From positions 1 through 42,967 of the IMG/VR virus record IMGVR_UViG_2563366803_000007: 42,967 nucleotides of DNA; one strand, 5' to 3'. The notes beneath the pieces are model-generated. The model was not told the origin of the DNA, did no database searches, and saw only the letters and a program-made list of their open reading frames with translations. Shown here piece by piece: positions 25,146 to 29,779 of the stretch (the first letter of the stretch is position 1; each line of letters starts with the position of its first letter). This stretch comes from a virus (taxonomy: Duplodnaviria > Heunggongvirae > Uroviricota > Caudoviricetes). Made by a program: the position numbers and the translations under genes.

Positions 25146-25604
25146 TTATTTCAGGCATTGCGTCCTGATGTATTCCTGCAGGTAGTTGACCTGTGCGGTT
25201 ATCTTGTCGATTCCACTTCGGAGACGGTAATAATTGAGTTCAGCATCTGCTGTAAGTCCTGGGCTTTCTCCATCGCCCATGCCGCTGGCTCCGGTCGTTG
25301 ACTTTGCACAGGTGGCGGCGACTTGCAGGCGCTTACGCCCAGCAGAAACATCAGCACGGAGACTTTCGATAGTCGCGTTAGCATCAGCAAGCTCCTTTAT
25401 GTATCTTGCGTCGAGTTCTGCTACATCACGTTGACGCTTCCGCATGTCAGCGATGGTGGCGTTCGCCTTCTCCAGTTCACTGGCCTTGTTATCGCGCTGC
25501 TCTTTGTAGGCGATTGCGTTATCACGGTAATGATTAACAGCCCATGACAGGCAAACGATGATGCAGATAACCAGAGCGGAGATAATCGCGGTTACTCTGC
25601 TCAT
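25146..25604 (-). CDS. Rz: Spanin inner-membrane subunit Rz (152 aa)
   Basis: N-terminus [31 protein letters not shown] as remembered for lambda Rz. Confidence 0.9.
25199..25390 (-). CDS. Rz1: Spanin outer-membrane lipoprotein Rz1, embedded in Rz in another frame (start uncertain)
   Basis: Embedded ORF with lipobox-like LLGVSAC followed by Pro-rich segment. Confidence 0.55.
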
Positions 25605-26077
25605 ACCTCAATCTCTCTGACCGTTCCGCCAGCTTCTTTGAATTTTGCAATCAGGCTGTCAGCCTTATGCTCGAACTGACCATAACCAGCCCCCGGCAGT
25701 GAAGCCCAGATATTGCTGCAACGGTCGATTGCCTGACGAATATCACCGTGGTCAATCATCGGTAAAGCGCCACGCTCTTTAATCTGTTGCAGTGCCACAG
25801 CGTCCTGGCTTTTCGGAGAGAAGTCTTTCAGGCCAAGCTGCTTACGATAGGCATCCCACCAACGGGAAAGAAGCTGGTAGCGTCCGGCGGCTGTTGATTT
25901 GAGTTTGGGGTTTAGCGTGACAAGTTTGCGAGGGTGATCGGAGTAATCAGTGAATAGCTCTCCTCCTACAATGACGTCATAACCATGATTTCTGGTTTTC
26001 TGACGTCCGTTATCAGTTCCCTCTGACCACGCCAGCATATCGAGGAACGCCTTACGTTGATTATTGATTTCCACCAT
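25601..26077 (-). CDS. R: Endolysin R (lambda-type lytic transglycosylase, 158 aa)
   Basis: Matches lambda R from memory ([24 protein letters not shown]...). Confidence 0.95.
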
Positions 26078-26384
26078 CTTCTATTCCGGCTTTTTTAGCA
26101 GCGAAGCGTTTGATAAGCGAACCAATCGAGTCAGTACCGATGTAGCCGATGAACACGCTCGTTATATAAGCGAGATTGCTACTTAGTCCGGCGAAGTCGA
26201 GAAGGTCACGAATGAACCAGGCGATAATGGCGCACATCGTTGCGTCGATTACTGTTTTTGTAAACGCACCGCCATTATATCTGCCGCGAAGGTACGCCAT
26301 TGCAAACGCAAGGATTGCCCCGATGCCTTGTTCCTTTGCCGCGAGAATGGCGGCTAACAGGTCATGTTTTTCTGGCATCTTCAT
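26061..26384 (-). CDS. S: Holin S (107 aa)
   Basis: Matches lambda S from memory ([22 protein letters not shown]...); dual-start motif MKM. Confidence 0.95.
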
Positions 26385-26626: not shown

Positions 26627-26702
26627 TGGTGCTGGTTAACGGACTTGAACCGCTACCCATTCGCTTACAAGGCGACTGCTCTACCATTGGAGCTAAACCA
26701 GC
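26627..26702 (-). tRNA. tRNA-Thr (anticodon UGU), phage-encoded
   Basis: Manual cloverleaf: 7-bp acceptor stem GCTGGTT/AACCAGC, D stem GCTC/GAGC, anticodon loop CTTGTAA, T loop TTCAAGT, 3' ACCA encoded. Confidence 0.6.
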
Positions 26703-26707
26703 ATATT

Positions 26708-26782
26708 TGGCGGGACAGCGTGGACTCGAACCACGATAAGAAGGTTAACAGCCTTCCGTAATGACCTTTATACGACTGACCC
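26708..26782 (-). tRNA. tRNA-Asn-like (anticodon GUU), possibly degenerate
   Basis: Manual cloverleaf: anticodon stem GAAGG/CCTTC, loop CTGTTAA, T arm CGTGG-TTCGAGT-CCACG, CCA encoded; one mismatch each in acceptor and D stems. Confidence 0.45.
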
Positions 26783-26873: not shown

Positions 26874-27362
26874 CTATGCTACATGTTTAATTTTCTCTAC
26901 ACGTTTCCGGTTTTTAAACGCACTATCCAGAACCGGGTAAATCATAAACAACGAGGCATTGAGGATTTCGTCAACTTCCCGTCGACAGGTTGCGAGCGAT
27001 GGTTTTTGAATGCGCCCGCCGCCCCGGCATAACATCTTGCGAGGTCTTGCGACGCGATGATAGTAAGATGCAATGGCGTGCTTGGAAGAGCCGTGGGCGT
27101 AGTAGCTGAGGAGGATGCCAAAGGCTTTCTTGTCAATGTACATGACGGAATCGACGACCTGAGAAATCAACATTCCATCATCATCATTACACATTGGCCT
27201 TGTCATAACTCTTCCCGGCTCTACGCTCTCCATGAACTTCGCTATTACGCTGCTCATGCGCTTTTCCAGGCGGCCTGAATAAACCCATGCGCCCCACAGT
27301 TCAAGCCAGCCATTCAGCCACTCATGCTGTTCTTTGGTGAGGTTTAGTTCTCTTATGCCCAT
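26874..27362 (-). CDS. Late-gene antiterminator Q-like protein (162 aa from ATG at 27360..27362); not lambda Q
   Basis: Position between ninG and the lysis cassette; GGGAGAAGG RBS; Cys-containing C-terminal region. Confidence 0.6.
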   Translation of the reverse strand: MGIRELNLTKEQHEWLNGWLELWGAWVYSGRLEKRMSSVIAKFMESVEPGRVMTRPMCNDDDGMLISQVVDSVMYIDKKAFGILLSYYAHGSSKHAIASYYHRVARPRKMLCRGGGRIQKPSLATCRREVDEILNASLFMIYPVLDSAFKNRKRVEKIKHVA

Positions 27363-27405
27363 GCGCCTTCTCCCTTGTGATCTGGAATGGTTTTTACTGA
27401 GAACG

Positions 27406-28011
27406 TCATGCGGCCTCACTTCTGCTGTTTCGCAGGTCTTTGAGTTTCTGCTGATACTCCGCCTTGATGGCCCTGCACTCTTCGACAGTCCAGCGATGGC
27501 GGTTATGGTTTGATTCGATTTCGTCTACTGCTTCCTGCCCGATGCGGTTAATCAGTTCGACGCGATACGGAACGAGATTTCCGCTTTTGTGCTGGTTGCA
27601 CACCACGCATTGCTTGTGAATATTGCGTTCATCAAATCGGAGTTGAGGTGCCGCAGCAGTTGTCCGGTAATGCCCGGCATCCCACTGAGCAGACGTGAGC
27701 GTTCCGCACGAGATACATGGTAAGTCGCGGTCTCTTTCTCTGATGAAGGCGTTTACGGCTTGTTGGGCTTGTTTAATCCAGTAACTGCGGGGCTTTAAGG
27801 CGAGTTTTCGAATCTTAAGTTTATCTTTCTGTTTCTGCTCCTCTCGTCGTCGTTTCTTCTCTGCTGCTTTTTCCGCTTTTTTTCGCTGTTTACTTTGTAG
27901 TTTGAGTGCTAACTGAGTTCCGTGTTCCGGGCAGCACCACCACTGATTTGAGAATGCCGGGTGAAACCATTCCTTGCATATTTTGCATTTCCTTCGCGCT
28001 GGTTTAGCCAT
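27406..28011 (-). CDS. ninG: NinG/Rap recombination-promoting nuclease (201 aa)
   Basis: Near-identical to lambda NinG as remembered (MAKPARR...[44 protein letters not shown]). Confidence 0.9.
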
Positions 28012-28180
28012 CGTCTTCTTCCTCGTGCATCGAGCTATTCGGATCGCTCATCAGTTCTGCGCAGCAGTGCTCACACACGTGAACTTCCAGCACATGCAGC
28101 TTCTGACCGCAGTTAGCGCACGTTAAAGCCCGCTCGACGCTTTCTTTCTGGTATTGAATGGATTGGGATGGGCTAAGCAT
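28004..28180 (-). CDS. ninF: NinF (58 aa from internal ATG)
   Basis: [40 protein letters not shown] matches lambda NinF from memory. Confidence 0.75.
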
Positions 28181-28580
28181 GGCTTTCACCATTAAAAAGT
28201 CGCTTGTAAGCATCAATGTCTCGTTTTGCTTCACCGAGCTTTCGTCTTAATTCCATGTTTTCTGATTCAAGCTTTTCCATGTCTTGTTGGTATCGATCGC
28301 GGTGTTCTTTCCATGCTTTTCGATACGCCTTCATGTATGTCGTATTGGCCTTTCTCTTTGCCTGACGAACCGCATGGTGGTTTTTCACAAACCAGTCAGG
28401 GTCGTTAAATGCTGCTCTGGCGCAGGTATACCAATAATTTGTTGCCTCCCTGTTTAGCCAATAAATACTGATAAATGGCAACCGGATAGACACTATTTTT
28501 CGTTGATACTCTTTCTCGCCGAACATGTGCCCTTTTTTGATGCTAAGGCCAAATCCAGGTTGAATTAAAAGCATTGTCAT
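28173..28580 (-). CDS. Hypothetical nin-region protein (135 aa), basic coiled-coil C-terminus
   Basis: ATG overlaps the ninE stop (ATGA); no recognised family. Confidence 0.45.
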
Positions 28581-28753
28581 TTCCTCGCACGATGTCTTAG
28601 CCACCGGATATCCCACAGGTGAGCCGTGTAGTTGAAGGTTTTTACGTCAGATTCTTTTGGGATTGGCTTGCGTTTATTTCTGGAGCGTTTCGTTGGAAGG
28701 TATTTGCAGTTTTCGCAGATGATGTCGGTGATGCTTCGTCGCTGTCGTCTCAT
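28577..28753 (-). CDS. ninE: NinE (58 aa)
   Basis: [58 protein letters not shown] matches lambda NinE from memory; ATGA overlap with ninB. Confidence 0.8.
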
Positions 28754-29160
28754 TCGTACCTCCTGTCGGTAAATCTGACACCCTGACCAATAGCCCATGC
28801 TGTCGTGTACTCAATCAGGCTTGCCATGCGCTTCACGCTCATCTGCGCGCTACTTTCGCGAATGTTGACGTATTCGCCTTCAAGCCCGGGCAAAACATCA
28901 GCTTCCTGCTTTGTTGCCACTGCATGACCGCTGATCAACAAAACCTTCCATTGTTCCGGTTTTAACCATTTTCCGCACCATTGAACCTGACGAGCGATAT
29001 CCGCCAGCATCGCGTGAAATTTTGCGTTCTGGTCAAGATTTCGCTTGTAGTCAGTAATGCGGATCGTGACTGGCTTGTCTTTATCGAGAGGAGTTGAGAG
29101 GATGGCATTTATTGCGGCTTGCTGTTGTTGCTTACTTCGGAGGAAGATTGTCTGCTTCAT
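28750..29160 (-). CDS. ninB: NinB-family recombination mediator (136 aa)
   Basis: Shared blocks with lambda NinB (RSLDQN, QWCGKWL region) and position at the head of the nin region. Confidence 0.6.
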
Positions 29161-29162
29161 CG

Positions 29163-29483
29163 TTACTCCTTCACTTTGACTCCAGCAGCGCGGATGTTTT
29201 CCTCATAAGCATCCATTCCATCGCCGAAGCCATTGGAATAATCAACAGTAAACCCTTTGGCTAATGCTTCTCTGCTGTCGATAAACTTTGGCGCGGTTAT
29301 TTCAATAGCTGATCGCGATGCCTGCCACGTTTGCCAGTGGCCTTGAACATCGTCCATCACGTATTGACCACCAATATTACCACTGCCAATTTCATGGTGA
29401 TTTTCAGGGTAACGGATAAGGTCTGAGGATTCGCCTCCACGTCGCAACCAACTTTCTTCAAACTGCTTTCTTGATTCGTCCAT
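29163..29483 (-). CDS. Hypothetical protein (106 aa)
   Basis: ORF between helicase and ninB; no recognised family. Confidence 0.45.
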   Translation of the reverse strand: MDESRKQFEESWLRRGGESSDLIRYPENHHEIGSGNIGGQYVMDDVQGHWQTWQASRSAIEITAPKFIDSREALAKGFTVDYSNGFGDGMDAYEENIRAAGVKVKE

Positions 29484-29500
29484 CGATACTTACCCTCAGT

Positions 29501-29707
29501 TCAACTCACAAAACGCCACGCCATTTTTGCTACAGCGACAGGCATAACACCGATAATCACCCACAGGAAAATGCTACCGAAAAGCACACCCACCAGGTCT
29601 TTACCTTCGCCTACCAACCGGACAAAACTGCTGGCAACAACAATGAACGTCGCCACCATCCACATAGCACCGAGAATCCTCAATGCAGAGAAAATTAACT
29701 CAGCCAC
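29501..29707 (-). CDS. Small membrane protein, two predicted transmembrane helices (68 aa)
   Basis: Hydrophobic segments ILGAMWMVATFIVVASSFV and LVGVLFGSIFLWVIIGVMPVAVA. Confidence 0.4.
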   Translation of the reverse strand: MAELIFSALRILGAMWMVATFIVVASSFVRLVGEGKDLVGVLFGSIFLWVIIGVMPVAVAKMAWRFVS

Positions 29708-29779
29708 GATTTACCCTCCCCCAAATAAAAAGGCCTGCGATTACCAGCAGGCCTGTTATTAGCTCAGTGATGTAGATGG

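Follow-up and report, generated by a model that had tools for sequence, protein, structure and literature searches.

ORF135, a conserved gene of the lambdoid nin operon that occupies the ninE-ninF slot as an alternative to ninX

The nin region is among the oldest studied of the phage accessory regions, and most of its small genes have no assigned function. The proteins NinB/Orf, NinD, NinE, NinF, NinG/Rap, NinH, NinY and NinZ belong to a class of small, non-essential delayed-early gene products. Tight packing of the genes through ATGA-type overlaps is typical of the nin regions of all lambdoid phages (PMC8022706). Between ninE and ninF, phage P22 carries ninX, whose product (112 amino acids; Pfam PF10765, PHROG 444) is dispensable and has no assigned function; in lambda, ninE is joined directly to a ninF with a different N-terminus, so that in an alignment of the three sequences compared here the slot is empty. 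The third of these is a DNA stretch of 42,967 nucleotides (the window: positions 1 to 42,967 of IMG/VR virus record IMGVR_UViG_2563366803_000007, a member of the Caudoviricetes), and the gene standing in its ninE-ninF slot, here called ORF135, is the subject of this analysis. ORF135 shares its operon and its ATGA-type packing with the other nin genes and would belong to the same class, and there is no homology between its product and any of the nin proteins named above.

The window is a lambdoid (pro)phage in reverse orientation, and its early-right operon is therefore on the minus strand. ORF135, including its TAG stop, occupies 28173..28580 on the minus strand, as seen in the list of open reading frames (ORFs), in the reverse-complement reading, and in the family match and substitution rates described below; this is exactly the interval named in an earlier note made from the sequence alone, which gave no strand. 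Upstream lies ninE (28577..28753, minus strand; 58 amino acids; PF05322 NinE, expectation value E=7e-44), and downstream ninF (28004..28180, minus strand; 58 amino acids; PF05810 NinF, E=1.7e-12; phrog_672), which by alignment has the N-terminus of the P22 type, MLSPSQS.... The earlier note had taken the gene to be integrated into the nin operon through overlaps at both ends, and with both flanks identified by Pfam the letters bear this out. The 3' end of ninE reads AGG AAA TGA, and the ORF135 ATG (28580-28578) begins at the last A of AAA to form an ATGA overlap; the 3' end of ORF135 reads CAT GCT TAG (stop at 28175-28173), with the ninF ATG (28180-28178) inside CATGCT, an overlap of 8 nucleotides. 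By their coordinates ninB and ninE are likewise ATGA-coupled, and ninF overlaps ninG by 8 nucleotides. Counted from the ATG at 28580, the gene has 135 codons plus the stop. A second in-frame ATG at 28574, two codons in, has better spacing from a GAGGA Shine-Dalgarno-like sequence and would give 133 amino acids, and it is there that RefSeq/PGAP and most databases start the protein (WP_000924594.1); the N-terminus, either MTMLLIQ... or MLLIQ..., is uncertain by two residues.

Comparison with P22 shows how the gene is set into its slot. The first nine bases, ATGACAATG (Met-Thr-Met), are the same in ORF135 and P22 ninX and follow directly on identical ninE 3' ends; at the other end both genes finish in GCTTAG, which overlaps one and the same ninF start, ATGCTTAGCCC. 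Apart from these shared junctions the two genes are unrelated. The 5' junction, CGTGCGAGGAAATGACAATG (28572..28591, minus strand; aligned with P22 and lambda), comprises the last ninE codons, GAGGA, the ATGA overlap and the MTM codons, and is common to P22 ninX. At the 3' junction, ATGCTTAG (28173..28180, minus strand; from the alignment), the start of ninF is laid over the last codons of ORF135 (..H, A, stop), and the ATGCTTAGCCC junction also ends most NinX-type ORFs, P22 ninX included. Because the junction sequences are shared exactly with ninX, ORF135 is an alternative occupant of the NinX slot, not an extra gene; the two proteins are also similar in size (112-147 amino acids for NinX).

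A scan of the IMG/VR viral contigs for exact copies of the 20-mer CGTGCGAGGAAATGACAATG returned at least 119 stretches, and at least 121 together with further loci. Among the matches listed, out of these 121 or more, 91 lead into a NinX-type ORF and 25 into an ORF135-type ORF, every one of exactly 135 codons, while 5 run off the contig end; the 116 complete ORFs behind CGTGCGAGGAAATGACAATG among the matches listed include no third ORF family. Over the same 116 loci, Fisher tests of cassette type against each ORF cluster in the 5 kb to the left and right showed no linked gene: with about 100 tests corrected for, none was significant, and outside the slot the lowest p was 0.03. The cassette therefore reassorts freely. 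Judged by these sequences, ORF135 and NinX are alternative, non-homologous cassettes of one slot, each of which would recombine into place between ninE and ninF through the shared gene-boundary sequences. Gene exchange at shared boundaries is the classic mosaic pattern of the lambdoid phages.

The two occupants differ in how much they vary. Both termini are constant among the NinX-type proteins at the IMG/VR junction loci and in P22 (35497-35835), with MTMDYSQLSDFEIN at the N-terminus and ...AMIVFLMMQDANNA at the C-terminus. The 40-70 residues in the centre come in at least 8 variants that look unrelated, and the proteins range in length from 105 to 165 amino acids. The NinX centre is thus a hypervariable cassette inside a cassette, whereas ORF135 is uniform.

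The earlier note had further held that the protein matches no lambda nin protein, and had proposed comparison with P22 NinX, NinY and NinZ and a profile-profile search. A Pfam scan assigns ORF135 to no Nin family, whereas its neighbours match NinB, NinE, NinF and NinG, and the best tblastn match in the lambda nin region (40300-44800) has E=0.71 and is out of frame with the annotated genes; the whole P22 genome together with the lambda nin region yields nothing better than E=0.7. BLASTP gives no alignment with P22 NinX or NinZ, and with NinY one of E=19 over 2 residues. The Phage_P22_NinX family, PF10765, which P22 NinX itself matches at 4.1e-31, is matched neither by ORF135 (at E<=1) nor by 25 members of its family (at E<=0.01), and an alignment of 50 ORF135 sequences set against 47 NinX-type proteins in hhalign reaches a probability of 0.25%. 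The NinX, NinY, NinZ and lambda Nin proteins are accordingly ruled out as identities for ORF135, so the note's statement stood and the comparisons that it proposed brought up no clear identity. NinX is thus without sequence or profile similarity to the protein whose slot it shares.

ORF135 is a genuine, selected and conserved gene. Across 22 distinct natural alleles, the median ratio of nonsynonymous to synonymous substitution rates (dN/dS) is 0.137 over 199 pairs with dS>0.05; residues 3-135 match the phrog_1511 hidden Markov model over positions 1-133 of 133 (E=6.6e-85); and the length is kept in relatives from 97% down to 25% identity. It is for these reasons, the low dN/dS, the full-length match and the same-length homologues to about 25% identity, that we regard the gene as real. 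An Rfam scan found no structured RNA beneath ORF135, and the window contains no paralogue of it.

By this profile match the protein can be placed in PHROG 1511, an already catalogued family to which no function has been assigned; other entries are WP_000924594.1, H0039 of VT1-Sakai and ORF53 of PY54, with distant relatives in PHROG 8749. ORF135 is 96-99% identical to the copies in Shiga toxin (Stx) 1 and Stx2 phages, HK629, HK630 and mEpX2, and the window allele differs in having N79 and R87, which most members lack, with no other substantial difference. Searched by tblastn, 58 phage records contain the gene, among them VT1-Sakai, H-19B, HK629, HK630, mEpX2, P27, PA28 and P22-like Salmonella phages, and the PY54 copy has 46% identity; in those 58 records it is always annotated as 'hypothetical protein' or not at all. 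It is carried by 392 of 5,426 complete E. coli genomes (about 7%), many copies lying in Stx prophages, and copies occur on 49 plasmids. Among 1.84 billion representatives, searched exhaustively with HMMER, there are only 37 such proteins, of which about 20 are distant members of 25-34% identity and unchanged length. No account of the protein was found in the literature.

Two of the phage records deserve separate mention. In that of H-19B (AF034975.3, 9219-9624), the alignment with ORF135 is split in two, suggestive of an apparent frameshift; the gene is unannotated there, only the flanking 'nin orf-58-A/B' being marked, and this may be why it was overlooked in early descriptions of the Stx-phage nin region. 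Salmonella phage GE_vB_TR (MG969415.1) has two separate matches (about 47%) and is the sole multi-copy phage record seen.

The structure of the protein was predicted with AlphaFold2, at a mean predicted local distance difference test (pLDDT) score of 78.6 from 30 close homologues and of 84.6 from 50 sequences including distant ones (all five models 79-85), with identical topology in both runs: strands 3-8, 13-18, 28-33 and 37-42, a helix 44-59, a short helix 61-67 and a long helix 69-132, whose pLDDT is 90-97 over residues 81-120. The predicted N-terminal domain (residues 3-59; 28404..28574, minus strand; from AlphaFold2 and conservation) consists of the four strands and helix 44-59, with the basic K15-K16-G17 at a hairpin tip, and G21. 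It is followed by a hinge motif, D60-P-D-W63-x3-N67-x4-R72-x2-K75 (28356..28403, minus strand), which in the alignments and by per-column conservation is the most conserved part of the family, and then by the long helix (28185..28376, minus strand; AlphaFold2 and heptad analysis), the N-terminal half of which is basic. When the divergent members are included, conservation is seen in the hydrophobic sheet core, at K15-K16-G17, at G21 and in the hinge residues D60-P-D-W63...N67...R72..K75, as well as at E/D121, L/Y125 and R/K126 near the C-terminus.

The earlier note had described the C-terminus as a basic coiled coil, and this stands in part: residues 61-100 have a net charge of +7 and a heptad core runs over residues 83-129, but residues 101-135 have a net charge of zero. 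In the core, position d is held by M83, W90, Y97, L104, L111, A118 and Y125, and position a by M101, N108, L115, I122 and F129. The heptad core, the asparagine at 'a' (Asn108) and two conserved g-e' salt bridges suggest a parallel coiled coil, the pairs 107-112 and 121-126 being attractive in 30 and 36 of the 50 members, respectively. The distance from W63 to L104 is exactly one heptad shorter in 16 of the 50 members (35 vs. 42 residues), which is consistent with a stalk. From the predicted fold and long helix we infer a parallel two-stranded coiled-coil dimer carrying two small basic heads.

No significant match to a characterised protein was obtained with Pfam, NCBIfam, PADLOC, PDB sequences, or Foldseek against PDB and BFVD. 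For ORF135 itself Pfam, NCBIfam and PADLOC gave sub-threshold coiled-coil noise only, as did Pfam and PADLOC for 25 family members (e.g. CagS, DUF3584, GerR and LmuB); the PADLOC hits, LmuB at E=0.0046, JetC and others, each involve 1-2 of the 25 members and are taken as noise of the same kind. Neither ORF135 alone nor the family profile had a significant match among PDB sequences; highest-ranking were HY5 (0.0078) and GCN4 (0.03), which match in the zipper only. Foldseek against PDB with both models gave only hits of E>=1.9 and template-modelling (TM) scores <=0.27, and the sole match in BFVD is to a truncated version of this protein encoded by an Stx1 phage. The weak Foldseek hits that recur, to roadblock/LC7, longin, Ragulator and PH/PTB proteins, have TM<0.3 and are not evidence; folds of the roadblock/LC7/longin and PH/PTB types were rejected, there being no significant superposition (E>=1.9, TM<=0.27). 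Also rejected was the AbrB/MazE swapped-hairpin domain (SpoVT_AbrB), which the beta-beta-turn-beta-beta topology had suggested: it is not among the top 50 Foldseek PDB hits of either model (none with E<1), and there is no Pfam hit.

In the window, the nin operon lies downstream of a DnaB-type helicase gene and comprises ninB, ninE, ORF135, ninF and ninG, followed directly by Q. It is minimal (26874-29160), without the ninC, ninD, ninH and ninI of lambda. In the closest E. coli prophages, which align to the window in pieces only, a Ser/Thr phosphatase gene stands between ninG and Q. Just past the end of the helicase gene, before the nin genes begin, a consensus scan found a terminator-like hairpin (29731..29754, minus strand; 8 bp, 6 of them GC, then TTTTATTT) at the position of lambda tR2 and P22 L2, where the P22 annotation also has a terminator; the same scan found no promoter-like site near ORF135 on its strand. 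Since there is no such site and the tR2-like terminator lies upstream, the sequence makes it most likely that ORF135 expression is delayed-early and antitermination-dependent. The hairpin is followed by an ORF of 68 very hydrophobic amino acids (29501..29707, minus strand; in the ORF list; phrog_1165, function unassigned), which has a second terminator-like site inside it (29632..29658, minus strand; consensus scan), and between this ORF and ninB lies one of 106 amino acids (29163..29483, minus strand), which matches phrog_343 only, has no Pfam family and is hypothetical in its RefSeq relatives. At the other end, Q (26874..27419) is separated from the lambda-type holin and endolysin genes (25601..26384) by tRNA-Thr(TGT) and tRNA-Asn(GTT) (26627..26782, minus strand). 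In Stx phages, tRNAs and the toxin genes occupy this position between Q and the lysis genes.

Distant homologues lie in the early regions of unrelated phages, seen in six contexts as well as in PY54 and a phage-plasmid. Like ORF135 in the window, which stands with NinB and NinG, they have genes of DNA metabolism as recurrent neighbours: in one context RdgC together with an exonuclease and an N6 methyltransferase, in others dCMP deaminase and a DNA-repair exonuclease, or dUTPase; in PY54 they are an exonuclease and a methyltransferase. These contexts have no fixed partner gene in common, only a generic DNA-metabolism neighbourhood. A copy of 129 amino acids, 80-84% identical, is found on non-mobilizable plasmids of about 110 kb in E. 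coli, Shigella and E. albertii, in the size class of the SSU5-type phage-plasmids. It is free-standing, as in p09EL50 (E. coli O104:H4, NC_018651.1, 6007-6396) and some 40 similar plasmids, is not flanked by ninE or ninF, and lies near a 5'-3' exonuclease, RepB and an SbcCD-like pair. The plasmid copies thus imply gene transfer between lambdoid phages and apparent phage-plasmids.

Taken by its place and family, ORF135 belongs to PHROG 1511 and is one of the non-essential accessory genes in the nin (pR) operon of lambdoid phages. Its translation is coupled to that of ninE and in turn to that of ninF. The product would have a small basic head of beta-sheet plus helix (3-59), the DPDW..N....R..K hinge and a helix of about 60 residues, which would form the parallel two-stranded coiled coil and so give a dimer with two heads. 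Such a dimer would act early in infection, stoichiometrically and not as a catalyst, by binding DNA or a complex that handles DNA in recombination, replication or repair. This last step is put forward tentatively, at somewhat less than even chances, with target, dimer and timing alike read from the predicted structure and the setting of the gene. It is suggested by the uniformly basic character of the family (every member has an isoelectric point of 8.6-10.5), by the conserved basic positions K15, K16, R72, K75 and R126, and by the DNA-metabolism neighbourhood, all of which are weak support for a DNA or nucleoprotein target.

Several points tell against it. Early regions are generically rich in DNA-metabolism genes, so the neighbourhood is weak evidence, and basic surfaces also suit acidic protein partners or RNA. 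Members differ in the net charge of residues 61-100, from -3 to +7, so that a grip on DNA by a basic helix is not a family feature. Half of the members (25 of 50) have a repulsive g-e' pair at 100-105, and a parallel homodimer is therefore not assured. The searches described above gave no significant match, in sequence or structure, to a characterised protein.

The main alternative, which we consider somewhat unlikely, is that the gene encodes a host-takeover or counter-defence factor, the heads of the dimer binding and inhibiting a host immunity sensor, nuclease or protease, with NinX as an alternative solution to the same task. In its favour, the protein is small, non-essential and presumably early, and its gene sits in a swappable accessory slot and reassorts independently of all its neighbours; the biology of the slot would suit such a factor as well as it suits a binder of DNA. 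The hypervariable centre of NinX is reminiscent of arms-race genes, and ORF135 combines a fold without known relative with a spread over lambdoid phages, the N15-like PY54 and the plasmids of about 110 kb. ORF135 itself, however, is under strong purifying selection (dN/dS 0.137) and has no hypervariable region; nothing in the data points to any particular target; and there is no PADLOC match, though PADLOC covers defence rather than anti-defence proteins. One may go further and suppose that ORF135 and NinX are interchangeable analogues, which for example neutralise a host nuclease or immunity factor or remodel an intermediate of recombination on which NinB and NinG act, that ORF135 founds a new class of dimeric coiled-coil effectors with an unseen N-terminal fold, and that the ninE-ninF interval is a counter-defence 'hot spot'; so extended a scheme is distinctly unlikely.

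Expression from the prophage instead, as a moron serving superinfection exclusion or as a defence gene of benefit to the host, would agree with the carriage of ORF135 by many prophages, including Stx phages, and with its being dispensable, lambda having no copy. We nevertheless judge it very unlikely, since the gene has no promoter-like site or terminator of its own and is coupled on both sides within the pR operon, past the tR2-like terminator, and since it matches no defence family in PADLOC and shows no membrane or secretion features on reading the sequence.

The databases offer a further candidate. Members of the cluster are for the most part named 'hypothetical protein', but some bear the automated names 'BZIP domain-containing protein', 'bZIP transcription factor' or 'TMF family protein'. 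An entry of 121 amino acids that matches half of ORF135 at 97% identity carries the label 'CII family transcriptional regulator' and has a PF05269 hit; it is probably a chimeric or mis-assembled ORF. Were ORF135 a basic leucine zipper (bZIP) transcription factor, its basic region would grip the major groove sequence-specifically and its leucine zipper would dimerise. Besides the names, this reading can call on N79-x7-R87 of the window allele, in canonical register with the zipper, on the likeness of Asn108 to the 'a'-position asparagine of GCN4 (the GCN4 sequence serving solely to show the register), on weak profile matches to HY5, GCN4 and C/EBP (E 0.008-0.35), and on zipper heptads with an 'a' asparagine that are contiguous with the preceding part of the predicted helix 69-132. 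The continuous helix with a basic N-terminal half and such a zipper is indeed common to ORF135 and the eukaryotic bZIPs GCN4, C/EBP and HY5. Over the family, however, N79 is present in 2 of 50 members (25 have Thr) and R87 in 9; PROSITE PS00036 matches none of the 50; and 18 are gapped at the N79/R87 columns, 16 of these being one heptad shorter through the 'basic region'. With Pfam bZIP_2 the score is 10 bits (E=0.95), below the cut-off of 22.3, no bZIP family is among the Pfam hits of the 25 members at E<=0.01, and there is no significant match in PDB. ORF135 differs from the eukaryotic proteins in its unconserved signature residues, its sub-threshold scores and its extra N-terminal beta domain, which bZIPs lack. 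Signature residues, PS00036, spacing and Pfam score together refute bZIP membership at the level of the family, and a bZIP factor is highly improbable; ORF135 may have in common with that class the overall arrangement in which a zipper is preceded by a basic helix, a 'works-like' resemblance at most.

Finally, although the databases hold many truncated or frameshifted copies and the H-19B gene aligns in two pieces, the notion of a chance ORF or a decaying pseudogene of a cryptic prophage has a negligible probability and was rejected on the selection and conservation data, with dN/dS at 0.137, length kept from 97% to 25% identity, the ORF intact in the functional phages HK629, HK630, mEpX2 and the P22-like Salmonella phages, and a confidently predicted fold.

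To a specialist, ORF135 as a catalogued and widespread 'conserved hypothetical' will be no surprise. What is new is modest: the exact allelic relation to NinX through the shared junctions, a predicted architecture of head, hinge and stalk for which the structure searches gave no neighbour, and the refutation, by sequence at the level of the family, of the automated bZIP label. The evidence of selection and wide spread, the standing of the gene as an alternative to NinX and the lack of support for the bZIP label make ORF135 a cleaner experimental target, and the slot itself offers three natural states, ORF135, NinX and, as in lambda, empty, for comparison by swapping.

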